Source of the DNA: Candidatus Woesearchaeota archaeon
Lineage (GTDB): Archaea > Nanobdellota > Nanobdellia > Pacearchaeales > GW2011-AR1
Length of the DNA: 64,000 nucleotides
Assembly (NCBI GenBank): GCA_964479755.1
Contig: CAYZNI010000001.1
Location: 10,171 to 74,170 of the forward strand
Direction: 5' to 3'
Numbering within the stretch: position 1 is the first letter of the stretch; every line of letters starts with the position of its first letter. Positions 47,690 to 62,818 of the stretch are shown piece by piece. The position numbers and the translations under genes are program-made. The notes below the pieces were generated by a model. The model searched no databases, was not told the DNA's origin, and saw nothing but the letters and a program-made list of their open reading frames with translations.

Positions 47690-49580
47690 AAATTTCAGAA
47701 ATGTTAACCGAATCGCGCCCAAAAAAAGAGGGCAAGCCGCAATATTTGTTATTGTCGCGATTGTAATAGTGGGCGCGATTCTGGTTTATTTATTTGCATT
47801 GAGGCAGCCTAAAACTGAAGAGATTTCTCCAGAGATTCAGCAGGTGTTTGCTTATTATGATAACTGCATCAAGGAACAAACTAAGGCAGCAATTAGTTTA
47901 GCTGGAATGCAAGGTGGCTGGGTTAATCCAGGAACTTATATTCCTGGAAGTGAATATGCACCTTTCTCTTCACAATTAAACTTTCTAGGAACACCTGTAA
48001 AGTATTGGTATTATGTTGCAGGAAATGGTTTAATAAAGGAGCAGGTGCCGAGCAAAACAGATATTCAAAATGGAATTTCTGATTTTGTGGAAGAAAACAT
48101 GGCTGCGTGCGACTTTAGAGAATTTATTGCATTGGGGTATAACATTAGTTATGTTGAGCCAGAAGTAAATATCATGATTGATGATACTCAGGTGAGCGTT
48201 GATGTCAATTCCCCTCTCACAGTAGGAAAAAATGGAGTTTTTGCAAGTAAGAATACGCATAGCGTAACTGTGGAGAGCAAAATTGGGAAATTTTACACTA
48301 TTGCGAAAAATATATACGCAAAGCAAAAGCAAGACGCTTTCTTTGAAAAATATGCGTTGGATGTATTGTATCTTTACGCACCTGTTGATGGAGTGGAAAT
48401 ACAGTGCGGGCCAAAAATATGGAGCACCCAAAGAATTATTAGCGAGGTAAGGGAGGCTCTGGAGAATAATTTTGCAATGATAAAATTCTCAGGTAATTAT
48501 TACACTTTAAAGAATAAAGATTCAAAATATTTTGTTGTCGATCAGACAAGCGATGAGGCTGTAAATGTAATGTATTCCAGAAATTGGCCGACAAAAATGG
48601 AGGTTTATGGCGAGGGGGTGGATGAGTCAACGATGATTGCGGAACCCGTTGGAACGCAGGAAGGGCTTGGTGTAATGGGGTTCTGCTATGTGCCGTATCA
48701 TTTTGTGTATGATTTGAGTTTTCCTGCGATGGTGCAAATTTATGATACGAACGAGGTTTTTCAGTTTCCAGTGGTTGTTGCGATTGACAAGACTGTTCCA
48801 AGAAAGGCGCAAGTAACCAACACATTTGATGAGGGAAATGAAACTGGAAACCTGTGCGCTTACAAACAACAGGAAATACAAGTTGATATTTATGATGTCA
48901 ATTTACAAAAGGTAGATGCGAATTTGAGCTATGAATGCTTTAATCAAAGATGTTTGCTTGGACAGAGCAGGAGCGGAACGTACAGGGGATTTGCACCTGT
49001 TTGCGTAAATGGGTATTTAATTGCTAGTGCCGGAGGATATGCGGAAAAGAAGCAGCTGATGTCTACAAACAAAGAGGTTAATGCAGATGTCTTGCTTGAA
49101 AGGGAGTACGAAGTTCAAGTTGAAATGGAAATTTCTGGCAGAGCGCTTAGAGGAAGCGCGATTGTTACATTCACAAGAGAGGATGGAAAGACCAGGGCTG
49201 TAAGCTTGCCTGGAGAGGACAAGGTTAAACTGTCAGAAGGAAGTTATGAAGTAAAGGCATATGCGTTTGGCAATTCTTCTGTAGTTATTCCGGCTTCGAC
49301 GAAGCTTGAATGCGTGGATGTGCCAAAATCGGGGCTATTAGGATTATTCGGAGGAACGGAAGAGAAATGTTTCGACATAACGACCCCTGAAAGCAAGATT
49401 GACAGCGCACTAATTGGAGGAGGGAGCTTGAATACTTATATTCTTGAGAGCCAGCTTCAGAGAAAAAAACTAACGATAAAAACCCAAGAGCTGCCGATGC
49501 CGAACTCGATTGAGCAGCTGCAGAAAAATTTTGAGAGTTTCGAAACAAGGAGGTTGGAATTAGCGTTCAATGAGAGATAA
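47682..49580 (+). CDS. Large surface protein with a type IV pilin-like (class III) signal peptide.
   Basis: Taking the ATG at 47682, the N-terminus is MSENFRNVNRIAPKKRGQAAIFVIVAIVIVGAILVYLF: a charged segment, then RG-Q, then a hydrophobic stretch. The ORF track shows a TTG-initiated version from 47652. Confidence 0.5.
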   Translation: MSENFRNVNRIAPKKRGQAAIFVIVAIVIVGAILVYLFALRQPKTEEISPEIQQVFAYYDNCIKEQTKAAISLAGMQGGWVNPGTYIPGSEYAPFSSQLNFLGTPVKYWYYVAGNGLIKEQVPSKTDIQNGISDFVEENMAACDFREFIALGYNISYVEPEVNIMIDDTQVSVDVNSPLTVGKNGVFASKNTHSVTVESKIGKFYTIAKNIYAKQKQDAFFEKYALDVLYLYAPVDGVEIQCGPKIWSTQRIISEVREALENNFAMIKFSGNYYTLKNKDSKYFVVDQTSDEAVNVMYSRNWPTKMEVYGEGVDESTMIAEPVGTQEGLGVMGFCYVPYHFVYDLSFPAMVQIYDTNEVFQFPVVVAIDKTVPRKAQVTNTFDEGNETGNLCAYKQQEIQVDIYDVNLQKVDANLSYECFNQRCLLGQSRSGTYRGFAPVCVNGYLIASAGGYAEKKQLMSTNKEVNADVLLEREYEVQVEMEISGRALRGSAIVTFTREDGKTRAVSLPGEDKVKLSEGSYEVKAYAFGNSSVVIPASTKLECVDVPKSGLLGLFGGTEEKCFDITTPESKIDSALIGGGSLNTYILESQLQRKKLTIKTQELPMPNSIEQLQKNFESFETRRLELAFNER

Positions 49581-52500
49581 ATTAATTATCGCATTAATCG
49601 GAATTTTATTTTTTGCAGCTGGAGGAGTTTTTGTTGCTGCGCAGATTAGCCAACCGCCACCTCTTTATCAACAGAACTACCCACAAACACCCAATTATAA
49701 CTATCAGTATCCCCAAGGGTATAATCCTGCTGGTTATTATCCTCCCGGCGCGGCTCAGCAGGGGTACAACTCGCAATACAATCCTTATTATGCAAGTAAT
49801 CCAAGTTATTATTCTCCATATTCAAGCAGTTATGGAAGCAATGGATTTTTGGGAGGAGGCACGTATGCGGGATATGTGAACACTCAACCGCAGCCGACGT
49901 TGCAGAGCTATTATTCTACTCCCATAGGAGAAGGACTTGGAAGCGGAGTTCAGACTTACTGGCCGATTCTTGGAGATGCGGAAACCTGCTTGGCGAGGCA
50001 AGACTTGATACTGAATGTGCCTCCGGCAGGATGCTCGCCTGTTGTTGTAAGAAGCGACCTGCTGGCAGAGCAGAACGTGCCAGTGTTTTGCCAAATAGAT
50101 TCGTACAAGATAAATCCATTGATTGATATTAACTCTATACAGAGCATGACTTTCAGCGGGCAGTATCCTCCAGAAGTTCTCGGAGCGGGATTTCATCCGG
50201 CAAGGGCGGCGATAAGGTCTGGAGAAACATTGCTTGGCGCTCCGCTGGCGAATAATGTGGGCTATATTGTAGTTGTTCTTAAAAGACAACCTGATGAAAG
50301 AAAGCTCCCTGATTTTGTGAATGTGACACTAGGCGCTAGAATAAATTATATTTCTGGAAATTCTTTAGGAATTGGTGCTAATGAATTTTTACTGAAACCG
50401 ATGTCTGATAGTGACTGGAATAATGATAAGCACAAGCAAAGCTTCTGGAATGGAAGGTATTTTGTAAGGCTTGAGGATGCGCAAGATAATTATGCTACTG
50501 TCTCGATTTACAACGGAAATCAAAAAGTTGTTACTCAAAGAGTTCAGAGCGGAACTACTTCGCCAGCAAACTTTTTGCCTGGCCTTTACTGCCAGGCGGG
50601 ACTACAAATCTCCTATGACGGAATTATTTCAGCTGACCAGACTGCAAAGATAGAAGTTAGCGATGACAAATCGACGGATGTGTTTGATGTAATTCAGGGC
50701 TCACAGTTTTTGAACAATAGGTGCAATGTGAATTATTTGGATGTTGCTGCAGACGGGCAGTCTGGAAGAGTAATAGTAAATTGCCCTGGAAGAACATTTG
50801 AGTTAGTTCTGGGAAGGGCGCTTTACGATGGGCAGAACCTGAGCGTGCAAGGAGTCAATGTAGTTCCAGTTAGGCAATCGTTTGGATATGAGCTAAATCT
50901 TGAGGTTTTGCAAGATGGAAGGAAGGGAAGTTACCTTTATGATTTTAACGGAATTTTGTCGAAAAGAAATGCAACTACAGGAGCTCTTGGGGTTTTAGTT
51001 GACTACAGAGGACAGTTTGTTGGAAGCGGAAACACGTCAAATGCAGAGTGGTATTTGGAGCTTTGGAGACAAATGGGGGAGATAACGGGAATAAGGAATG
51101 CAGTTGCGCAAGGAGGGAGCCAACAAAATTTGTCGCAGGCTAAGCCCTATTATACAAATGCAATAAATAATTTTGAAAGCGTTTCTGATGACTATGCTTC
51201 AGAGGTTTCAGATTCAGGTACTAAATATGGACAGCTGGCTTTAGAGAGCGGCGTGAATTTAGCACAGAAATTCGGGGATGCACAGACGCAAAGCAGACTA
51301 TTGAAAAAATTAATTGATAATTATCCTGTTCAAAATCAAAGTTATTCAAATATGATGAAGCAAATTAGTGGAGCTGACACATCACAGGCTTCTCAAGCGG
51401 TAGAATTTGAGGAAGGCACAAAAGTAATTAGGCTAATCGGGTTTAACAGCCCGAAGCAGAGGTCAAGCGCAGAGTTCTCAATAGATGGCAGAGGTCAAAC
51501 TTTAAATGTTAAGGCGCAGAGAATACAACTTGTAAGCAGCGGAGTCAACGGAGTTTTTACCAGAGGAGAAATTTCCATTGACAATGTAGACCCCCAGCAG
51601 GCTTTCGTGACTGCATATTGCGCAAATGCCAACGGAGTGATTCCGACTTATGGCGATAGCTATATTTTGAGGACGTTTGAACCTGAAAGAATTATTTGCG
51701 GCTCTGCAGTAAAGTTGATAAGAACGAATGTGAACTCAATGGCCAAAATAAGGCTTTATCCAACCTCGCAAGGAACGCAGACATTGACAAATGTAACTGT
51801 CACAATTGGAATTGAAAAAAGGGCGATAAAGATATCTCCTGAGAAAGCCAGAGAGAAGATAGAGAACTTGAACAAGAGCATAAAGAAGTGGGAGGAGATT
51901 TCAAAGAATATGGGCACAGTAGTCTCGGGACTTAAGACGGCGTGCTTTGCAACTTCGGCTGTGCTGACTTTCAAGAACTTTGTGACAGGATTAAGCGGAG
52001 AGACAATTGCGAGACAACAAGTTATGAACGGGGAGAATGGATGGAGGAATAGATGTGCCAAACTTGTTGGAGATGGAGCTTACGCCACAGTTGACCAGTG
52101 CTATTTGGCTAAATCCGGAGAGATTGATGCCGAGGTTTCCAAGAATGTTAATGCAATAAACAAAGTTAATCAAAAGATACAATCCATACAGGGCAAATAC
52201 ACTACTACAACTGACATATTTGGGCAGAGCGTCGACGCGGAGAAATTGAGAACTGCATTAGCAGCGCAGGCCAGAGCAGATTATGGGAACACGATGATTG
52301 ATGTTTCGAACTTTTCAAAGAAATATTTTGTGACAGGGCCTGATGGTAAGCAGATTCAGGCGACCAGCATAACGATAAATGAACTTTTGTCAGATGAAAA
52401 TATGAAGAATGGAGCAGTTTCGACTGATGCGCTGAAGACGATTATGGTAAATGCTGAACTTAAGAATTCAGGTGCGAGCGGAGAGCAATTAAAAAATATC

Positions 52501-55500
52501 AACTCGTATTTAAGCGATAGTGCTGTAAAGATAAATGATAATAGAATCGCTTATCAAGACTTGGAGAAGGCAAAAGCTGACGCTGATAGCGGTTTTGGCC
52601 AGCCGTTTTACTTGAATCCGGACAATCAGCAGATGAGAGTTGCGGATGTTGTGAGAATGTCGGATGATACAAAAAACAAAACCGGATTTACAGAAGTTGT
52701 TAATTATGTCAGTACGGCTGTTGTTTCTGGAGGAACAGCAACTGAAAAAAGCCCAGGAGATTTTGAAAGCGGAACATACAGACTAGGGCTCGTGGGGCTG
52801 GATTCCGGGCAGGGAATTTATGGAGTCAAGGAGATTTATTTTGTTGATAAGAATGAAAGCTTAGCGCCTGAAAAAGTCAAGCAATTTTTGAGCAAGTATG
52901 GAGTTGGAAACTTGAAGGGAGCTGATAGAGTAAGCTATAGTCATCAAATTATATCGACTGATAGGAAGTGCAGGTTTTATGAGACAGAGCCTTATAGAGG
53001 AATGCCTGCGGTAATTCCGTTTGATTACAGAAATGGATGGTATGCGGCAACTCGGCAGACATTGCCTGCGTTTGGGGGAATAGGAGCGTTTGACAAGTCG
53101 GGAAGAGTAACTAGCTTCTGGTTGTGCAATGTTGGAGACAATGGAAGAGTTGAATTTGAATCGGGATTTGGAGATGATTTGTGCCAGCAAATCAATTTAA
53201 ACACTGGACAGCCGCTTGGGAGTTTCCCTGGATTGAGCGATGCCGATGCAAAGACAAAAATATCGCAGGCGACAAGCGCAATTGAGCAAGCAGCGAGGCA
53301 GTATCCGAACAAGGTCATAACAGTAAATGGAGAGAGATGCGAAGTTGGAGCGCCTAGCTCTGGACAGCCAGGGACGCAGTGCCAGGACTTTATGTCGCCG
53401 AAAGACTGCTTGTTGTTGTTCAATGTTTGCGACCCGGTGATTTGTCCGCCATCAAGATGCAATCTTGGAGGGACTTATAATGTGGCAGATGTAGCGCAAA
53501 GCGGACTAGTTGGAAGCATATTCCTGTGCCTTCCAAATATAAGAGAGGGAGTGGCAATGCCCGTGTGCTTGACTGGAATCCAGGCGGGTATAGATGCCTG
53601 GACATCAATAATGAAAAATTACAGAGATTGTTTGCAGGAGAACATTGATACTGGGCAGACGGTTGGAATTTGCGATGAGATACACTCAATTTATTTGTGC
53701 GAGTTCTTCTGGGGACAAATTGCACCGTTTGTGAATGTTATCATTCCTAAATTGATTGAGATTGCTTATGGCCAGGGTGTAAGGGGCGGCGGTGAATACT
53801 TGACAGTGCAGTCTTCTTGGCAGAACATGGAAAATTCGATAAATTATTTTACGAATCATTATGCTGTAAACTCGATGAATGCATTTCGAGCGAGGTCGAA
53901 CGGGCAGTACGGAAGCAATCCTTACTCTCTTGGAAGCATTGCAGAAGTTGGCACTTCATTTTGCCAGAATTTCATGTCTATAAAAGCACCTTCTGCGTTC
54001 CAATCTCTTGTTGAACCGGATTCGCCGCCGCAGTTTTACGCGTGGTTTGATGAAAAAACATTTTCAACAGTGACTGTTCCAGCGACTTCGCAATACAAAG
54101 TGTTTTATCATATATTTGCAGGCAACGATGCTGGCGTGCAATTCAGCGTTTATTTGAAAGGTGCTCCTGAGAGTTCATTTTATGCGACAAATCCTTTTGT
54201 TACGGTGGACACTGGATTTGTTGCCAGAGGGCAGTATGCATCTAACACGAAGGACTTTACAGCGCCTCAGAGTTATAAACAACTTTGTGTGAGGATAAAT
54301 GCACAGGAAGAGTGCGGCTTTGGGCAAGTATCGACTGATTTTGCGATAAATTATATCCGAGACAGCTGGGTGAAGGGAGAACTGCAGAATACAAATATTA
54401 ATTCAGAGAAAGATTGCGTTTCAGGAAGCAACAATCCAGGTGCGCTTCTCAATCCGAATATTCAGGCAGGAGTTGAGAGCTTTGTTTCGCCTGATGTATA
54501 TAACAGAGGCGTAGTCAGAATATGCTCAACAGACAATCCTGGAAAGGGAACTGATCCGACGAGATTTGTAAATGTTGGAAACTGCGGGGATACAAAAGTC
54601 GGATGCTGGCTGGACAAGAGAAGCGTGGATAATGCGTTAACAAATGGAAATGTTGGAGCGAGAAATGAGACGTTGCAAGTGCTGCAAAACCAAGTAGATA
54701 ATTATTTAATTAATAGCGGAGAGTTGTTCAACAATGAGCAGAGTGCCGTTGAGATTCAGAGTTTGAAGCTGGCGTTTGAGGATTTGAAGAAGGAAAGCGC
54801 CAGCACAATAATTGGAAAAGCACAGGATATGATGAACAGGATTGACTTTGATGTTATTAAAGTAGTGTTGAGCAGAGACAAGGCACAGTTGATATTGCTT
54901 AGAGGACAGGTTAATGCTGAAGTAGCTATGAAGTTGAAGGCGGTTGAGGATGCTTCAAGGCCTGCGCCGCAGCTGCCGACGCCTGGGCAAGGCGTGGCGC
55001 AACCGTCTAACAATGGAATTAATAGTGGGACTGGAGCTTCATCTGGAAAGCCCGTGGAATTTTTATTTGGGCAGGAAGCCCAGCCAAATAATAAACAGGA
55101 AAATACTATTTATTTTGAATTAACGACTCAGGCTTATTCGAATGATAAGTTCTACTTGTCTAAATTTGATGGCGACGCAGAATTTGGGCTGTTATATCAA
55201 AAGAAGGATGGAACTCTTGTTGGCATAGGAAGGTTTGTTAATGGGTTTGTTACAGGAGGAGTTCAAGGATTTAGTCAATTAACTAATGGAGAAATTCCAA
55301 ATCTTGAAGATAAACTGCAAGGAGCTGCGATTAAGTATGAGATGCTTGATGGCGCTGCTCCTGTTGTTTTAGCAGATGGAAGATATGGATTTACGTTAGG
55401 GGGCAGAAGTTATGCACTTAATGCGGGGAGATTTGAGATTAGTATTGATGGGATAAATTATACGAATGCTTCTAAACTGTGGAATATGACTAATGATGCT

Positions 55501-56298
55501 ATTGAAAGACGGCGCTTAGTTCTTGCAGAGTATGAATTGAGAAGATATAGCAGCAAATTGGTTGTTGGTCCGCCTGCTCCATCTTTAAGTGGGACGATGC
55601 AGCCCGGGCAATCTGTCGGAATGGAGAGTAAAGGTGAAAAAACGCAGACTGAAGTGACGGCGCAAAATAATTATGGAATTCCGTCGCCATTAACTTTAGA
55701 TAATGCAAGAGTTTTTTTAGAAGGGAAAATTAGTTCTAGTACTTCTGGAAGCTATGGAAGTTATGTTTATGGTGCTAGTCAAGTTCCAGAGTTTACTGAA
55801 TTTGTTAATCAGCTGTATTCTATGAGATTAATAAGCGAGAGTGAGTTTGTTGATATTAATGGAAGTGGTTGGCTTAATATGGCTGAGACTGTGAATTGGG
55901 TTGTTGATTTGTTGAAAAAGAAAAAGGAGGCGCAGCAGACAAGTCAATCCGGTACTCCAATTGCTCAACAGCAAAAGAAATGTTATAGTGTTCAAATTAA
56001 ACTTTTAAACGGGAGACAATATATTCTTTTAGATGGAACAAGCACAAAACTTTATTTGCTTGATGGATTTGTTAAGACTGATTATGTTAATGAAAGGGGT
56101 GGAAGAATATCTCTATCATTAGTACCAATAAATAGCGGTGGATTAATAGGAACTAGTCAGATTGAAGATAACGTAAATAAAATTAGGAATGATTTTTATG
56201 TTGTGAGTAACTTAGAGGCAATTAAGGGCAAATTTGTAGATTACTCTCAAAGTAAATTGTTGGTTTCTCAAGGCAGAGAGCAGTTTTGTGTTGATTAG
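49570..56298 (+). CDS. Giant (2242-aa) membrane-anchored extracellular protein, function unknown.
   Basis: Its start overlaps the previous stop by 11 nt. N-terminal anchor MRDKLIIALIGILFFAAGGVFVAA, then a Y/P/Q-rich low-complexity linker, then a long ectodomain with a Cys cluster (CLLLFNVCDPVICPPSRC). Confidence 0.55.
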   Translation: MRDKLIIALIGILFFAAGGVFVAAQISQPPPLYQQNYPQTPNYNYQYPQGYNPAGYYPPGAAQQGYNSQYNPYYASNPSYYSPYSSSYGSNGFLGGGTYAGYVNTQPQPTLQSYYSTPIGEGLGSGVQTYWPILGDAETCLARQDLILNVPPAGCSPVVVRSDLLAEQNVPVFCQIDSYKINPLIDINSIQSMTFSGQYPPEVLGAGFHPARAAIRSGETLLGAPLANNVGYIVVVLKRQPDERKLPDFVNVTLGARINYISGNSLGIGANEFLLKPMSDSDWNNDKHKQSFWNGRYFVRLEDAQDNYATVSIYNGNQKVVTQRVQSGTTSPANFLPGLYCQAGLQISYDGIISADQTAKIEVSDDKSTDVFDVIQGSQFLNNRCNVNYLDVAADGQSGRVIVNCPGRTFELVLGRALYDGQNLSVQGVNVVPVRQSFGYELNLEVLQDGRKGSYLYDFNGILSKRNATTGALGVLVDYRGQFVGSGNTSNAEWYLELWRQMGEITGIRNAVAQGGSQQNLSQAKPYYTNAINNFESVSDDYASEVSDSGTKYGQLALESGVNLAQKFGDAQTQSRLLKKLIDNYPVQNQSYSNMMKQISGADTSQASQAVEFEEGTKVIRLIGFNSPKQRSSAEFSIDGRGQTLNVKAQRIQLVSSGVNGVFTRGEISIDNVDPQQAFVTAYCANANGVIPTYGDSYILRTFEPERIICGSAVKLIRTNVNSMAKIRLYPTSQGTQTLTNVTVTIGIEKRAIKISPEKAREKIENLNKSIKKWEEISKNMGTVVSGLKTACFATSAVLTFKNFVTGLSGETIARQQVMNGENGWRNRCAKLVGDGAYATVDQCYLAKSGEIDAEVSKNVNAINKVNQKIQSIQGKYTTTTDIFGQSVDAEKLRTALAAQARADYGNTMIDVSNFSKKYFVTGPDGKQIQATSITINELLSDENMKNGAVSTDALKTIMVNAELKNSGASGEQLKNINSYLSDSAVKINDNRIAYQDLEKAKADADSGFGQPFYLNPDNQQMRVADVVRMSDDTKNKTGFTEVVNYVSTAVVSGGTATEKSPGDFESGTYRLGLVGLDSGQGIYGVKEIYFVDKNESLAPEKVKQFLSKYGVGNLKGADRVSYSHQIISTDRKCRFYETEPYRGMPAVIPFDYRNGWYAATRQTLPAFGGIGAFDKSGRVTSFWLCNVGDNGRVEFESGFGDDLCQQINLNTGQPLGSFPGLSDADAKTKISQATSAIEQAARQYPNKVITVNGERCEVGAPSSGQPGTQCQDFMSPKDCLLLFNVCDPVICPPSRCNLGGTYNVADVAQSGLVGSIFLCLPNIREGVAMPVCLTGIQAGIDAWTSIMKNYRDCLQENIDTGQTVGICDEIHSIYLCEFFWGQIAPFVNVIIPKLIEIAYGQGVRGGGEYLTVQSSWQNMENSINYFTNHYAVNSMNAFRARSNGQYGSNPYSLGSIAEVGTSFCQNFMSIKAPSAFQSLVEPDSPPQFYAWFDEKTFSTVTVPATSQYKVFYHIFAGNDAGVQFSVYLKGAPESSFYATNPFVTVDTGFVARGQYASNTKDFTAPQSYKQLCVRINAQEECGFGQVSTDFAINYIRDSWVKGELQNTNINSEKDCVSGSNNPGALLNPNIQAGVESFVSPDVYNRGVVRICSTDNPGKGTDPTRFVNVGNCGDTKVGCWLDKRSVDNALTNGNVGARNETLQVLQNQVDNYLINSGELFNNEQSAVEIQSLKLAFEDLKKESASTIIGKAQDMMNRIDFDVIKVVLSRDKAQLILLRGQVNAEVAMKLKAVEDASRPAPQLPTPGQGVAQPSNNGINSGTGASSGKPVEFLFGQEAQPNNKQENTIYFELTTQAYSNDKFYLSKFDGDAEFGLLYQKKDGTLVGIGRFVNGFVTGGVQGFSQLTNGEIPNLEDKLQGAAIKYEMLDGAAPVVLADGRYGFTLGGRSYALNAGRFEISIDGINYTNASKLWNMTNDAIERRRLVLAEYELRRYSSKLVVGPPAPSLSGTMQPGQSVGMESKGEKTQTEVTAQNNYGIPSPLTLDNARVFLEGKISSSTSGSYGSYVYGASQVPEFTEFVNQLYSMRLISESEFVDINGSGWLNMAETVNWVVDLLKKKKEAQQTSQSGTPIAQQQKKCYSVQIKLLNGRQYILLDGTSTKLYLLDGFVKTDYVNERGGRISLSLVPINSGGLIGTSQIEDNVNKIRNDFYVVSNLEAIKGKFVDYSQSKLLVSQGREQFCVD

Positions 56299-57469: not shown

Positions 57470-57571
57470 AGTTTCTTATGAATACTGAAATATTTAAATC
57501 TTACTTTTTTTGCTTAAAGAAAGAACTGCATTGCAAAGGTTTAAATCACGCAAAAATTTTTATAAAATAGT

Positions 57572-57655
57572 GCGGAGATGCCGGAGTGGTCAAACGGGTC
57601 ACGTTTAGGCCGTGATAGCTTAGTGCTTACCTAGGTTCGAATCCTAGTCTCCGCA
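57572..57655 (+). tRNA. tRNA-Leu (anticodon UAG), class II with a long variable arm.
   Basis: Cloverleaf folded by hand. Acceptor stem GCGGAGA/UCUCCGC; anticodon stem UCACG/CGUGA with loop UUUAGGC; variable arm AGCUUAGUGCU; T arm CUAGG/CCUAG with loop UUCGAAU; discriminator A. Confidence 0.8.
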
Positions 57656-57802
57656 TAAGTTCTAAATTTAAGAATCTGGAATCATTTTTTCCAAGACAAA
57701 AATTTCCAGCATTTCTTAGTGGTTTAGGGATGAATGCAATGAAGCTGCATATCCATTCGGAATTCGCAAGGTTTTTATATTGATTTTGGAAAGAATGGAG
57801 TT

Positions 57803-58396
57803 ATGAAATATTTGTGCCTGGATGATATGCTGAACAGGGAAACATCAAGTATGAAACTTGGATTTTCCAAAGACCCTATTTTTGTTTTTGACACAAATGC
57901 ATTCAAATATCGATATAAAAAGACTGAAAGGAAAGTTGTCGTGATGGAGAGCTGTCTTGGCGAGCTGTTCAGGAATAGCGAGGTTTTTCCTGATGAAAGC
58001 GTTCTGGAGCTTTCTTTGATGCTGAATCCTGATGTTATAAATCAATTTGTTTCTGAAAGTAATGAAAAACTAATCTTGGAAACCTGCAGGAAATATGCGA
58101 AAGGAGATTATGCGAAACAATTTGGCTTGGGATGGGCTGACAACCAGATTTTGTCTTACGCGCTTGAGCAATCCAGAAAAGGAAATTATGTGGCGATTGT
58201 TTCCAATGACGCGAACATAAACAGAGTGGTTAAGGGATTCATTGAAACAGCACCGGAGTTGAAGGGAAGAATTACTGCCTTATCGGCAAGAAGGTATTTA
58301 ATTCAGGCAAACAGCCAAAGGCTTAAAGGACTTGACAAAGGATTCAGGGAGGCGATTGCGAAAGAGATGGAAGAACAGTATAGGGTTGCTGGATGA
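57803..58396 (+). CDS. PIN-domain (VapC-like) nuclease.
   Basis: PIN acidic residues at conserved positions: FVFDTNAF, VVMESCLGE, IVSNDANI. The start may be an internal Met near 57851. Confidence 0.45.
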   Translation: MKYLCLDDMLNRETSSMKLGFSKDPIFVFDTNAFKYRYKKTERKVVVMESCLGELFRNSEVFPDESVLELSLMLNPDVINQFVSESNEKLILETCRKYAKGDYAKQFGLGWADNQILSYALEQSRKGNYVAIVSNDANINRVVKGFIETAPELKGRITALSARRYLIQANSQRLKGLDKGFREAIAKEMEEQYRVAG

Positions 58397-58474
58397 CTTT
58401 TTTTGGTTTTGTATCTACTATTTGTGAAATTTGATAATAGGAAGATATTTAAATTCATTATCTTTAAAGAGATA

Positions 58475-59128
58475 ATGGTAATTGTAAACGAAATAACAAT
58501 GAATATAGTGAAAAATGCTGAAGATGGAGAAAGCATCTATAGCTTGGCTTCCAAGATAGGTTTTGCTTATTCTGCGGTTTACAAATGGATATCTGAATTA
58601 GAAAGATACGGGGTAATCAGTTTAATTAGAAAGGGGAATAAAAATGTCATAAAGATTAATAAGAATTTAATTTATAAGAAATTTAAAGAATTAGACGAGG
58701 CTGTTTCTGTTATAGAGAAGGATAATACTTTCTGGAGGTTAGTTAAAAATTTGAAATTAAAGATAAGATTTGTTAAGGGAACAGCTGCGACTATCTGGAC
58801 TAAAGGAAGTTTTATCACTGGAGATTTTTATGACAGAATTTATTTTTTAGAAGTTGAAAAGAAAGATGTAGATGCTTTAAAGAAAGCTTTGAAGAAAGAG
58901 GGAATTGGCTTTACTGAAGGAGAATTAGAGAATAAAAGACCTTTAGTTTGGATTATAGAAAAAATAAATTTAAAGATAGAAAAAAAAGATGGTTTGCCCG
59001 TTATGCCTTTAAAAGAATTGGTTGAGTGGGGAAAAGAATTGCATTTAGAAAATATCTTAGAGCAATTAGACTTATTATACAATTTAAGATTAAATTTTAA
59101 TTATTCAGAGGTGTCAACAAATGTCTAA
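58475..59128 (+). CDS. Winged-HTH protein; putative AbiEi-like antitoxin/regulator partner of the downstream NTase.
   Basis: HTH SIYSLASKIGFAYSAVYKWISELERYGVISL. Its stop overlaps the downstream start by 8 nt. The ORF track extends the 5' end to 58403. Confidence 0.35.
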   Translation: MVIVNEITMNIVKNAEDGESIYSLASKIGFAYSAVYKWISELERYGVISLIRKGNKNVIKINKNLIYKKFKELDEAVSVIEKDNTFWRLVKNLKLKIRFVKGTAATIWTKGSFITGDFYDRIYFLEVEKKDVDALKKALKKEGIGFTEGELENKRPLVWIIEKINLKIEKKDGLPVMPLKELVEWGKELHLENILEQLDLLYNLRLNFNYSEVSTNV

Positions 59129-59825
59129 GGATGATTCAAGAGCTGGCCTACTTGAAAGAGAAGGAGAGGTTATGAAGATGCTGGATTTATTTATAGATAA
59201 AAAATTAGACTTTGTTGTAGTTGGCGGATATGCAATTTCAACGTATAAGAAAAGGTTCTCAATTGATTTAGACTTGGTGGTAAAAGAAGACGATCTTGAA
59301 AAGTTTGAGAAAATATTAGAAAAAGATGGCTACGCATTACATTATGAAAAAGAAATAGCTTTGATGTATGGAGAAAATTTTAAAAGATTTATGAAAAAGA
59401 TGAAAAATTTGCCTGTTGATATAGACTTATTAATCAATGGACTTGCTTCTCGAACAACACACGCGACTTGGGGATTAGAGTATATAAAGAGAAATTCTAT
59501 AAAAAGAAAACTAAATAACTCTGATTTTATAACTCCTGAGAAAGAGCTGCTTATTGCAATGAAATTTCATAGTGGAAGACTTTCGGATATAAGGGATATT
59601 GTTGCTTTAATGCCTTGTGACAAAGATAAACTGAGAAAACATTTGTTAAAAGGAGATATCAAAAAGCTTAAAGAATCAATAGAAAAGCGAGCAGCTTTCC
59701 TGGATAAGCCGCAATTTGATGATAGTTTTAAGGGAATCTTTGGACCTTTTTCATTTAGTGTTGAAGATTTCCAAGAGGCCAAAGAGTTGGTTAAAGAAAT
59801 ATTAAAGGAGAAAGTTAATAATTAA
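59121..59825 (+). CDS. Nucleotidyltransferase of the AbiEii/DUF1814-like type (putative toxin).
   Basis: NTase motif hGG-x10-DxD: FVVVGGYAISTYKKRFSIDLDLVV. Confidence 0.45.
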   Translation: MSKDDSRAGLLEREGEVMKMLDLFIDKKLDFVVVGGYAISTYKKRFSIDLDLVVKEDDLEKFEKILEKDGYALHYEKEIALMYGENFKRFMKKMKNLPVDIDLLINGLASRTTHATWGLEYIKRNSIKRKLNNSDFITPEKELLIAMKFHSGRLSDIRDIVALMPCDKDKLRKHLLKGDIKKLKESIEKRAAFLDKPQFDDSFKGIFGPFSFSVEDFQEAKELVKEILKEKVNN

Positions 59826-60233
59826 TAAATTAAACAAGATACCTCTCACCCATAAGCTCCTGAAAAATGTTGTATAAGATTCAATAAAGGGTTTGTTGAA
59901 ACTTTAGACGATGAAGAATGATTTAAAATTTTAAGTGAATAGTTATTTGAGACAAAATGGCGGTGGGAATAGGTTGTGTTTGCGAGAGAAATAAACCTGC
60001 TGTTTTAGGGTTGATTATCGCAGAATTTTTGGCTGGTTTTTGTTCTGTGTTTGGTGAGTTATAATGATGTAGTTCAGAATAGTCCGTTTGCGAATTCTAA
60101 CTCGCCGATTGCGTTTTCAAAAACTACATTGGAAGAGAGAGGAAATCTGCGCATCGCGGGCAGGCTGCTTGTGAAGTTCAAGGATAATGTTTCATGGAAT
60201 TTTGCTACAACGAGCGTTATTGTGAGGAAGTGA

Positions 60234-61178
60234 TTATTTTTCTTTTTCTTTCTTTTTGGCTTTTTCTGCTGCGGCAACTTTGCTTGAGAGTTTGTCTTCC
60301 AGGCCAAGACGTTCTGTTAGCTCTTTGTATCTATTGCGGATTGTGACCTCTGTAATTCCGGCGACGTCTGCAACTTCTCTTTGAGTTTTTTTCTCGTCAT
60401 TTAGGAGAGCGGCAACGTAAAGCGCCGCGGCTGCAATCCCGGCGGGACCTCTACCTGATGTTAATTCTGAGACGTCTGCTTTTTTCAAGATTTTTAGAGC
60501 TTCATTTTGAGTTTTTGGAGATAAGTGAAGAATAGAGGCAAATCTTGAAATGTAATCTTTTGGAGAGCTTGGGCGGACTTTGATTTTTAATTTGCGGACA
60601 ATGAATCTGTAAGTTCGGCCGATTTCTTTTCTTTCAACGTCGGATGCTTCCCCAATTTCATCAAGAGTTCTTGGTATGTTATAAGAGCGGCAGGCAGCGT
60701 AAATGCAGGCAGCGATAACTGACTCCATTGAGCGCCCTCGGACTAAGCCTCTTTGCAGGACATAATTGTAAACTCTTGCGGCTTCGTCTCGAATTACTGA
60801 AGGGAGATTAAGGAAAGATGCAACACGGCGGAGTTCCGACATAGCCAAACGGAGATTTCTTTCAATTGAAGTGGAAACTCTTTCCTGCCATTTCTTTAAA
60901 CGCAGAAATTTTCTTGTTTGGCCGGCTTCTAACTTGTAAATATCTGAGATTTCTCCGACATTAGTTGTAAGGCCTTTGTCGTATTTTTGCATAGAAATTG
61001 GAGCTCCACCTCTACCGCGTTTTTCTGCTTTGTCAAATTGACCGCCACCTTCCTGACCGGTATCGACGATTTTTTCCTCTATGATTAGGCCGCATTCATT
61101 GCAGACTAACTCTCCCTTATGGCTGTCAAAAACAAGGTCGACACTGGAACATTCCGGGCAGCGTTTTATATTAGACAT
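60234..61178 (-). CDS. tfb: Transcription initiation factor IIB (TFB).
   Basis: N-terminal zinc ribbon CPECSS...CNECG, followed by two cyclin-like repeats. Length 314 aa. Confidence 0.85.
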   Translation of the reverse strand: MSNIKRCPECSSVDLVFDSHKGELVCNECGLIIEEKIVDTGQEGGGQFDKAEKRGRGGAPISMQKYDKGLTTNVGEISDIYKLEAGQTRKFLRLKKWQERVSTSIERNLRLAMSELRRVASFLNLPSVIRDEAARVYNYVLQRGLVRGRSMESVIAACIYAACRSYNIPRTLDEIGEASDVERKEIGRTYRFIVRKLKIKVRPSSPKDYISRFASILHLSPKTQNEALKILKKADVSELTSGRGPAGIAAAALYVAALLNDEKKTQREVADVAGITEVTIRNRYKELTERLGLEDKLSSKVAAAEKAKKKEKEK

Positions 61179-61479: not shown

Positions 61480-61845
61480 TTAGTTTTCTTTCAAAAGAAC
61501 TGCATTGACATGGCCTTCTTGGGAAGGTCTGTTTGTTATTTTTGCTTTTCCGGCGTCGGTTTCAATGATTGCGCCTTTCATTAATCGGTTTTGCCTTGCC
61601 AAGAAGATATTTTGGGGAGTTTCTATAACGTTTTTTATTTTGACTTTTTTTGCCTTGCCGTTGACTATGAGGTTAGCTTCGTCTGTACTTAGGAGAATGG
61701 TTTTGATGTGACCGCCGGTTACTCTGAGGTTTTTGCGCTTGGTTGCCCTAAGCGGCACTATGCGCTCCTGAGTTTGCTTCTCGAACAGCCTTTTTTTCCT
61801 GTTTCTATGGTATTTTCCGCCGGTAATTTTTCTTCCATGATTCAT
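61480..61845 (-). CDS. rps8e: 30S ribosomal protein S8e.
   Basis: The N-terminus RKITGGKYHRNRKKR and the C-terminus KGAIIETDAGKAKITNRPSQEGHVNAVLL match the S8e family. Confidence 0.8.
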   Translation of the reverse strand: MNHGRKITGGKYHRNRKKRLFEKQTQERIVPLRATKRKNLRVTGGHIKTILLSTDEANLIVNGKAKKVKIKNVIETPQNIFLARQNRLMKGAIIETDAGKAKITNRPSQEGHVNAVLLKEN

Positions 61846-61892: not shown

Positions 61893-62818
61893 GGGTGCAG
61901 TATCCGTAATTATTACACAACGCTGTCTTTTTTAGTTTCTTCATATTTATATTTTCTTTTAAAACCTCGAGCTGGAGTCTCAAGCTCTTCAAAGTTTAAA
62001 CTTAAACGTGGTTTTATGTGATTATACAAATAAACAAACTCTTTAAGTGAGGTGAACATGTGCCTCTTTTGTCTATACAACCCATACCAACGTTCTATCT
62101 TGCCATTAGTTTGATGGTGGTTAATCCTTCCAATATCTGTTTTATATTATTCACTTCGCAAAACTCTCTTAACAAATCAGAAGTAAATTGAGTTCCTTGA
62201 TAAGTTATCAATTCTTTAATCTTGCTGTAATCTAAGGCTTTTTTCAACAGCAGAACAGTGTTATCTGCTGTTTCACAATCAAACTCTCCATAAGTTAGAA
62301 TCATTCGAGACGCATCGTCGAGAACAGCACAAATCCATACACCTCTTTCTCTGTCCTCAAGCCAGTCCATGTGGACAGCAGTTAAGCTATGATCTCGCTC
62401 ATATCTTACCCAAGGCTTCTTCCTGATTTTCTTTTCCATCTGTTTAACAAAACCAGACTCTAATAAAATTCTATGTATTCTGTTATGATTAATTTCAATT
62501 CCATACTTAGCTCTTATCACAGGCCTTAGCAAAGAAGCAGATAGCTTAAACTTTCTAAAACACTCCAGGATTGATTGTGTTTCATATTCTTTTGGGAGTT
62601 TTCTAGGCCTTTCCATACGCTCTCCAATGCTTGGAACATCACCTAAAGTCAAAGCTTTTCTTTTAATCTGATACACTCTACCGATGCTTTTGTTGTACTG
62701 CCTGCTTAGCTCATAAGCAGTCCAGCCATTTCCTGGCTTAACAACGATAAACTTCACCATCTCTTTATTGAGTTTCATATCCTGTTCATTTATTTTATCA
62801 TTGTGAACTATTTTTCGG
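61893..62818 (-). mobile_element. IS element with a frameshifted DDE (rve-type) transposase; boundaries approximate, from imperfect terminal inverted repeats.
   Basis: Transposase ORF 62095..62778 has an N-terminal HTH and carries D (AVHMDW) and D (VLDDASR). The catalytic E motif HQTNGKIER and a YNHIKPRLSL tail lie in the -1 frame, 62094 down to about 61911. Ends resemble inverted repeats: cggatac-gacgcc at about 62802 and ggtgcagtatccg at about 61897. Confidence 0.55.
62095..62778 (-). pseudogene. DDE transposase, N-terminal 227 codons; the frame is interrupted before the catalytic E.
   Basis: As described for the IS-element feature (61893..62818) in this list. Confidence 0.55.

Follow-up and report, generated by a model that had tools for sequence, protein, structure and literature searches.

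The toxins MenT1 and MenT3 of Mycobacterium tuberculosis and AbiEii of Streptococcus agalactiae and Lactococcus lactis are nucleotidyltransferases (NTases). MenT and AbiEii act on tRNAs, which they modify at the 3′ end; they are neutralised when the antitoxin induces them to auto-phosphorylate a serine or threonine two residues before the first catalytic aspartate (PMC7450476, PMC11375011, bioRxiv 10.64898/2026.01.19.700257). The residues auto-phosphorylated on antitoxin binding are T39 of MenT1, S78 of MenT3 and T65 of AbiEii (PMC11375011; bioRxiv 10.64898/2026.01.19.700257), and the arginine preceding the phosphoacceptor is a motif II residue specific to AbiEii (PMC3985639). AbiE (AbiEi/AbiEii; COG5340-DUF1814), formerly a type IV toxin–antitoxin (TA) system, is now proposed to be type VII, and AbiE-like systems have been reported to be enriched in DPANN archaea (PMC12988326). 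Here, a pair of adjacent genes, named B and C, was analyzed in a 64,000-nt stretch of DNA (the window) from Candidatus Woesearchaeota archaeon (GCA_964479755.1, contig CAYZNI010000001.1, positions 10,171–74,170, forward strand). The host of the window is a DPANN archaeon of the Pacearchaeota/Woesearchaeota type, on the basis of its transcription factor B (TFB), its ribosomal protein S8e and the nearest relatives of the genes studied. B–C is an autonomous two-gene module with its own promoter (58438–59825), and it is probably a self-contained MenAT/AbiE-type TA or abortive-infection module restricted to DPANN archaea, because the two genes always occur together, have their own promoter and palindrome, are patchily distributed, and encode an NTase with the MenT/AbiEii fold and the motif R-F-S-x-D-x-D.

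The layout of the module resembles that of AbiE, a bicistron in which a winged helix-turn-helix (wHTH) regulator with a C-terminal domain is encoded first, a polymerase beta (pol-beta)-type NTase second, and the genes overlap. Gene B (58475–59128, plus strand) encodes the proposed autorepressor and antitoxin, a wHTH protein of 217 aa whose C-terminal domain is novel. Gene C (59121–59825, plus strand) encodes a 234-aa MenT/AbiEii-like NTase, the proposed toxin. As an earlier note on this DNA had described, the start of C overlaps the stop of B by 8 nt (ATGTCTAA, 59121–59128, plus strand, read from the sequence), which indicates that translation of the two genes would be coupled. The ATGnnTAA overlap of 8 nt was found in about 20 of the 27 loci inspected, the rest having a 4-nt overlap or a gap of 1–3 nt. 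The same note had listed a tRNA-Leu and a PIN-like open reading frame (ORF) alongside the wHTH and NTase genes, and all four are present where it placed them, with small corrections only. Gene B had been listed from a TTG at 58403; its true start is the ATG at 58475, because all homologues are 217 aa and begin with MxI(I/V)NEIT.

Conservation of the module begins abruptly about 40 nt before the ATG of B and ends at the stop codon of C, and nothing is conserved beyond C. The conserved upstream block, aligned from 19 loci, reads AGAAAG-n-TATTTAAA-tcc-ATTATCTTT-AA-AAAGATAAT-G. It contains the predicted B–C promoter (58438–58453, plus strand), composed of a purine-rich stretch resembling a B recognition element (BRE) and a TATA box (TATTTAAA, 58446–58453); both were kept in 19/19 aligned loci, and the DNA farther upstream was unrelated. 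The promoter is followed by a putative operator, the 9-2-9 palindrome ATTATCTTT-AA-AGAGATAAT (58457–58476, plus strand), which has one mismatch in the window copy; the putative operator stretch for B is ATTATCTTTAAAGAGATAAT, and the palindrome runs into the B start codon, with the A and T of that codon as its final two bases. The palindrome is nearly invariant across the 19 loci (invariant alignment columns 53–59, 61, 64 and 66–73) despite saturated synonymous sites in B. No second good copy of it was found in the window, the best match, with 1 mismatch, being the operator itself. In the standard archaeal geometry the TATA box is centred about 26 nt upstream of the transcription start. The TATA-to-ATG distance of about 26 nt, read with this geometry, implies that the B–C transcript would be leaderless and that the palindrome would cover the initiation site.

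A different arrangement was observed in L013 (4385–4354 region), L020, L036 and L047, where an additional 70 nt or so separate the upstream TATA box and palindrome from B. These four loci carry a conserved leader before B, with a short upstream ORF starting at the ATG of the palindrome, plus a hairpin whose stems vary by compensatory changes (GAAAACCTTTAGGTTTTC, GAGAACCTAAGGTTCTC and AAGAACCTCTGGTTCTC). The hairpin and upstream ORF may form a regulatory element of the 5′ untranslated region in one sub-clade.

The NTase signature that the earlier note had recognised in C is present, with a spacer of 12 residues instead of the 10 it had given: G35-G36-x12-D49-L-D51 lies inside the consensus hG[GS]x9-13DhD, and also inside the wider AbiE pattern hG[GS]-x(9-15)-DhD (PMC3985639, PMC11375011, bioRxiv 10.64898/2026.01.19.700257). 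Motifs I and II (G35-G36 ... R45-F46-S47-I48-D49-L50-D51, encoded at 59223–59273, plus strand) are invariant in 46 homologues. Residues G35, G36, R45, F46, S47, D49, L50 and D51, and further D102, K148, G152, R153, D156 and D159, are invariant both in these 46 and in a more divergent set. The helical-domain motif K148-x4-R153-x2-D156-x2-D159 (59562–59597, plus strand) is a likely counterpart of AbiEii motifs III/IV; by motif order, and with a different spacing, K148, R153, D156 and D159 may correspond to AbiEii K173, R180 and D192. The only models matched by all 46 members of the C family were NTP_transf_5 (PF14907) and DUF6036 (PF19502). The match of C to DUF6036 was the weaker one; C scored 33.8 bits against NTP_transf_5, above the gathering cut-off of 31.2, over residues 18–142 (best E-value in the family, 4e-11); the match is partial, covering model positions 61–181 of 249, and membership of this family is silent on mechanism. 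Literature searches on PF14907 and DUF6036 found nothing useful.

Single-sequence searches of the PDB with C, and likewise with the upstream PIN-like gene, named A, returned nothing. With family profiles, MenT1 was the best PDB match to the divergent profile A5 of C (E = 0.27, not significant alone) and ranked fourth with profile A2 (E = 0.78), below three chance annexin matches. In the A2 alignment, GGfAvS...RFTrDvD of MenT1 stands residue-for-residue opposite GGYAIS...RFSIDLD of C, and S47 of C aligns to the phosphoacceptor position of MenT1 T39 and AbiEii T65. The corresponding stretch of AbiEii, R63-x-T65-x-D67-x-D69, likewise parallels R45-F-S47-I-D49-L-D51 of C. MenT1 is of similar size (196 aa) with a near-identical motif, whereas the overall similarity of C to MenT is marginal (E of about 0.3–0.8 against the PDB). 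The fold of C is of the MenT/AbiEii toxin type, and MenT-type toxins ranked above every resistance enzyme structurally. Decayed copies of C were also observed, one with an in-frame stop within the conserved PEKELLIAMK segment (L022:5001–5690) and one with a frameshift near residue 172 (L055:5001–5671); such toxin pseudogenes give a decay pattern typical of TA loci.

Relatives of both proteins were collected from a 5.8-billion-protein database at E ≤ 1e-3, and identity figures refer to the best 120 matches of each gene. Gene B had 359 relatives and gene C 542, with identities of 70–93% for both. Among the best 120 of its 359 relatives, B was almost always exactly 217 aa long. The dN/dS of B was about 0.1, with synonymous sites near saturation (pS 0.52–0.65). 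B and C are real genes rather than chance ORFs, because of these numbers of relatives and this dN/dS. The N-terminus of B gave generic wHTH matches only (HVO_A0114, HTH_28 and others), and a literature search on HVO_A0114 found nothing useful. Profile searches of B against the PDB returned wHTH matches only, and wHTH proteins dominated a fold search with the B model, so that its result bears on the wHTH part of B. The recognition-helix residues A31, Y32, S33, V35 and Y36 are invariant. In L012:4880–5000, an insertion of about 110 nt displaces the last residues of B.

Residues 90–217 of B had no family match. A sensitive phmmer search with the C-terminal domain alone against 1.84 billion representative proteins gave 27 matches, none linking the domain to a known family; the full-length proteins inspected among them were wHTH-plus-C-terminal-domain proteins of about 210–220 aa, and many others were fragments. 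A separate observation concerned P0261, an apparently bacterial protein of 1448 aa in which six tandem repeats (...WPAVW..GGLPAP...FLGLDQKKVDAYFAALQAAGFTR) match residues 16–55 of the C-terminal domain; this is probably a common small beta-alpha-beta unit rather than homology. The secondary structures of the C-terminal domain follow the order alpha-beta-alpha-beta-alpha-beta, as in a minimal NTase, which mirrors the NTase core of C. An hhalign comparison of the domain with C was colinear over 92 columns (P = 0.08), pairing RFVKGTAATIW...GD...LEVEKKDVDALKKALKKEGI of B with FVVVGGYAIS...DLD...VVKEDDLEKFEKILEKDGY of C; with more diverse B and C profiles, a match of 23 columns only was obtained (P = 0.027). 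A degenerate NTase homologous to C was thus suggested by hhalign at a level that is not significant, and the idea is kept as a lead only.

A scan of one genome per species (loci labelled L001 onward; 58 module loci examined in total) detected 47 B–C loci in about 43 genomes, four of which carry two copies. B lies directly upstream of C in 41/41 loci having upstream DNA. The genomes are labelled Pacearchaeota, Woesearchaeota or Nanoarchaeota, apart from one Aenigmatarchaeota, one "archaeon" (L053) and one "Paceibacterota" (L045). The last record (DAOTCN010000001.1, 389 kb, titled "Candidatus Paceibacterota bacterium") has a 601-aa aIF5B-type factor (GTP_EFTU + IF-2 + GTP_EFTU_D4) as a neighbour of B–C, and it is probably archaeal and mislabelled, cross-domain transfer being the alternative. 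The genes flanking B–C differ by lineage; among them are those for PolD, for a helicase, for TctA/TauE transporters and for a radical-SAM protein accompanied by Fic. A type I restriction–modification (R-M) methylase (HsdM) comes immediately after C in two lineages (L009:6807–8384, where it shares 4 nt with the stop of C, and L012 downstream of 5720); the overlap in L009 suggests that B–C may be co-transcribed with an R-M system. The GC content of the module tracks that of its host across loci (r = 0.79) and is only slightly lower, and recent horizontal transfer inferred from GC content was ruled out by this tracking as a general explanation. A second, different NTase pair was seen about 4 kb from B–C in L001 (10884–12069). 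In it the gene of a DUF6036 NTase (195 aa) comes first and overlaps that of a 206-aa protein of no known family, so that the gene order is opposite to that of B–C.

In the mechanism we propose, B would dimerise via its long helix, bind the 9-2-9 palindrome spanning the transcription start and repress its own leaderless operon. Free C would add nucleotides to tRNAs or other RNAs at their 3′ ends and so arrest translation like MenT1, MenT3 and AbiEii. The novel C-terminal domain of B would bind C, and B would neutralise C by occlusion, by auto-phosphorylation of the invariant S47, or by both, following type VII logic. If infection or loss of the module set C free, abortive infection or addiction would follow. 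MenAT offers a precedent, in that the unrelated antitoxins MenA1 and MenA3 neutralise homologous toxins via induced auto-phosphorylation; MenA1 is small and helical and MenA3 is AbiEi-like, and neither resembles B. The type VII MNT-HEPN systems are also small NTase-containing two-gene modules, common in archaea, whose toxin is neutralised by covalent modification. There, however, the NTase is the antitoxin and HEPN the toxin, whereas B–C has no HEPN domain and C has an extra helical domain like that of MenT/AbiEii.

A bolder form of this proposal, to which we give a low probability, is that B–C forms a separate lineage of MenT-type (type VII) TA systems, specific to DPANN archaea and equipped with an antitoxin not described before. 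In that case the C-terminal domain of B could be a catalytically dead toxin paralogue that neutralises C by heterodimerisation or by auto-phosphorylation of S47, and the conservation of the pair would reflect a real benefit beyond addiction, for example abortive infection in CRISPR-poor, ultra-small archaea. The evidence for this conservation is the dN/dS of about 0.1, the TFB-like identity range and the invariant operator.

Gene A (57803–58396, plus strand, from the ORF list) encodes a 197-aa PIN-like protein and had been grouped with the pair in one defence or addiction islet in the earlier note. It does not belong to the module: homologues of A were found in 0/58 module loci, and the conserved block starts only about 40 nt upstream of B. 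Its description as a PIN-domain protein with conserved acidic positions held in part. The acidic residues D30 (FDTN), E54, D113 and D136 (SND) follow the canonical PIN order, would on that ground form the PIN active site, and are identical in the sole detectable homologue. The match to PIN_4 (PF13638) covers the model nearly end to end (positions 1–117 of 132, E = 6e-4) and scores 20.5 bits, under the cut-off of 21.9. A differs from PIN_4/VapC nucleases in this sub-threshold score, in its length of 197 aa with a C-terminal helical extension, in having one detectable homologue, and in the lack of an upstream VapB-like ORF: the 146 nt from the tRNA to A hold no plus-strand ORF of at least 40 aa, and hence no VapB-type antitoxin gene.

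No match to A was found in the PDB, NCBIfam, PADLOC or PHROGs, and the 5.8-billion-protein database returned only the self-match. The sole homologue, L067:1658–2251 (minus strand; 37% identity over all 197 aa, E = 8e-42), surfaced by chance in the TFB synteny scan described below. It stands alone between TFB and tRNA-Leu(CAA), in a genome that carries no B–C module. A two-sequence PIN profile built from A and this homologue matched nothing in the PDB, and the PIN assignment of the family is tentative, because the L067 protein has no Pfam PIN match. Gene A is a separate accessory passenger outside the B–C module that shares the same variable TFB/tRNA-Leu junction.

That junction was compared in 80 related contigs (L063–L142) obtained from a metagenome scan with TFB as query. 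In the window, tRNA-Leu(UAG) lies at 57571–57656 (plus strand; ARAGORN anticodon tag; Rfam RF00005, 56.4 bits), a landmark outside the B–C module, and Pfam scans placed the archaeal TFB gene at 60234–61178 and the S8e gene at 61480–61845, both on the minus strand. The order S8e-TFB-tRNA-Leu(UAG) was kept in most of the 80 contigs, with the tRNA 50–260 nt after TFB in either orientation (about 55 contigs). The gap in the window is 2.58 kb (57656–60234) and is filled by C, B and A only. Neither B nor C occurs in the 80 contigs. About 15 contigs carry unrelated inserts of 0.5–3.5 kb here, including NAD kinase, PfkB kinase, dCTP-deaminase-like, Holliday-junction-resolvase-like and sigma-70-region-4 proteins, and because these inserts differ, the TFB/tRNA-Leu(UAG) junction is a variable spot in Pacearchaeota-like genomes. 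The sigma-70 region 4 inserts (L073:6937–7506 and L081:6937–7698; a similar unscanned ORF is at L087:5823–6605) are unexpected in archaea.

An islet acquired horizontally at the tRNA, as the earlier note had it, is therefore reasonable as far as insertion goes, because the junction is only 50–260 nt wide in most related genomes. The hallmarks of site-specific integration did not accompany it. A repeat of the tRNA-Leu 3′ end, which the note had suggested looking for downstream of 59.8 kb, was absent there and from the rest of the window (last 20 nt with ≤3 mismatches; last 13 nt with ≤2; repeat search), and no integrase or recombinase lies in the islet, where A, B and C are the only genes between the tRNA and TFB. 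Because genes past the tRNA show no synteny with any relative, a rearrangement breakpoint is as possible as an insertion. The GC content of the module in the window is 0.30, against 0.38 in the flanks. A tRNA gene within 350 nt of the module was found in 4/38 other loci (P of about 0.01–0.06); as a general property of the module this is marginal and was not relied on.

Farther out, just past S8e, an ORF of 227 aa (62095–62778, minus strand) encodes an integrase core (rve) domain and HTH motifs; it is probably an insertion sequence (IS)-type transposase or a piece of one and does not adjoin the islet. On the other side, a giant 2242-aa ORF (49570–56298, plus strand) with a signal-like N-terminus and a low-complexity start rich in Q/N/Y/P ends 1.3 kb upstream of tRNA-Leu and is followed by ORFs of 210 and 117 aa. 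The C-terminal 400 aa of the giant ORF and these two ORFs had no counterpart in the 80 TFB-linked contigs, and a metagenome scan with the 210-aa ORF gave zero relatives.

Several results weigh against reading B–C as a MenAT/AbiE-type module. The best Pfam family of C, NTP_transf_5, is of unknown function. The earlier note had called C DUF1814/AbiEii-like, and formal membership of that family was not supported by a hidden Markov model search, in which C scored 19.3 bits against PF08843 (cut-off 22.5) over residues 28–75, the N-terminal core only. Weak matches to this model occurred in 43/46 members of the family (best E = 7e-4), and the PADLOC AbiEii model PDLC02299 matched C at E = 6e-6, again at the N-terminus only. 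The AbiEi-like partner was not borne out either: B showed no AbiEi fold or MenA similarity in sequence or fold searches, and 0/58 members of its family matched AbiEi models even at E ≤ 1. A search of 2.9 million viral contigs found no copy of the module, a plasmid context was not seen, and PHROGs gave nothing meaningful. Moreover, B and C are unusually conserved for a TA pair (70–93% identity, fixed length, dN/dS of about 0.1), with an identity range about that of TFB, which was measured in a different contig set; such strong conservation would also fit a beneficial, non-toxic function.

What stands of the AbiE-type pair is the bicistron order, the overlap, motifs I and II and the MenT/AbiEii fold, to which an inverted repeat in the promoter and a C-terminal helical domain with conserved K, R and D can be added as likenesses. 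Besides the model scores and the missing AbiEi/COG5340 signal in B, the differences are that C is shorter than AbiEii at 234 aa and has another motif III/IV spacing, that its G-to-D spacer is 12 residues as opposed to 15, that a single palindrome covers the start codon of a predicted leaderless transcript where AbiE has two inverted repeats, and that the hosts are DPANN archaea only. B–C would accordingly be said to work like AbiE/MenAT rather than to be a formal AbiE member, and we file it outside AbiE because C falls below the AbiEii threshold and B is not an AbiEi-type antitoxin.

This conservation is the main caveat, and it would suit the idea that B–C is a regulated enzyme pair without TA behaviour, in which B would be an ordinary repressor, possibly responsive to a ligand through its C-terminal domain, and C would nucleotidylate a small molecule or a protein (ANT/Lnu-type, signalling or modification). 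Strong purifying selection, fixed length and a TFB-like identity range would be more usual for a useful enzyme than for a selfish TA locus, and C has weak Pfam matches to Aminoglyc_resit (43/46 members) and GrpB and a faint NCBIfam match to Lnu(C). We nevertheless regard this explanation as unlikely, given that MenT-type toxins outrank all resistance enzymes structurally, that R-F-S-x-D-x-D with a phosphoacceptor serine is a MenT/AbiEii hallmark (PMC11375011), and that coupling to a repressor, patchy multi-copy spread, toxin pseudogenes and an R-M neighbourhood suit TA or defence. High sequence conservation and membership of the pol-beta-type NTase superfamily would also be expected if C were a housekeeping NTase for RNA maturation or repair (CCA-adding or tailing type) with a dedicated transcription factor. 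This is hardly credible for a module that one scan detected in no more than about 43 species-level genomes and that 0/80 TFB-linked relatives carry, with a C gene that is sometimes duplicated and sometimes a pseudogene and a neighbourhood that differs in every lineage. No CCA-adding family in Pfam or NCBIfam matched C. C is not a CCA-adding or pol-beta housekeeping enzyme, so the housekeeping match that the earlier note had named as refuting its reading was absent on the NTase side.

The remaining explanation takes the picture of the earlier note as a whole: the PIN gene and the AbiE pair would have arrived together, as a single defence islet of three genes, through site-specific integration on the 3′ side of tRNA-Leu. 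The 2.58-kb gap in place of the 50–260 nt seen in about 55 related contigs, the low GC content of the window module relative to its flanks and the few other loci with a nearby tRNA speak for it. As a single unit it is largely refuted and we consider it very improbable: A accompanies B–C in none of the 58 loci and its homologue stands alone at the same junction in L067, B–C has its own promoter and conservation stops between A and B, neither a tRNA 3′-end repeat (2–3 mismatches allowed) nor an adjacent integrase is present, the loss of synteny past the tRNA suits a rearrangement equally well, and the tracking of host GC by the module argues against recent transfer. The MenAT/AbiE-type module thus remains the explanation we favour.

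DPANN archaea have tiny genomes and few CRISPR or R-M systems, and we know of almost no experimentally characterised defence or addiction modules in them. B–C is compact (1.4 kb) and highly conserved; its putative operator is a defined 20-bp stretch, and its catalytic and phosphoacceptor motif is clear. It would escape current defence-finder models, with its antitoxin lacking an AbiEi signal and its toxin scoring below threshold, and it is an example of how the number of AbiE/MenT-type systems in archaea may be underestimated. If B–C proves non-toxic, it would provide the first functional handle on the NTP_transf_5/DUF6036 families. If the TA reading is true, B would represent a new antitoxin family for a toxin class whose mechanism of induced auto-phosphorylation has only recently been worked out in bacteria.

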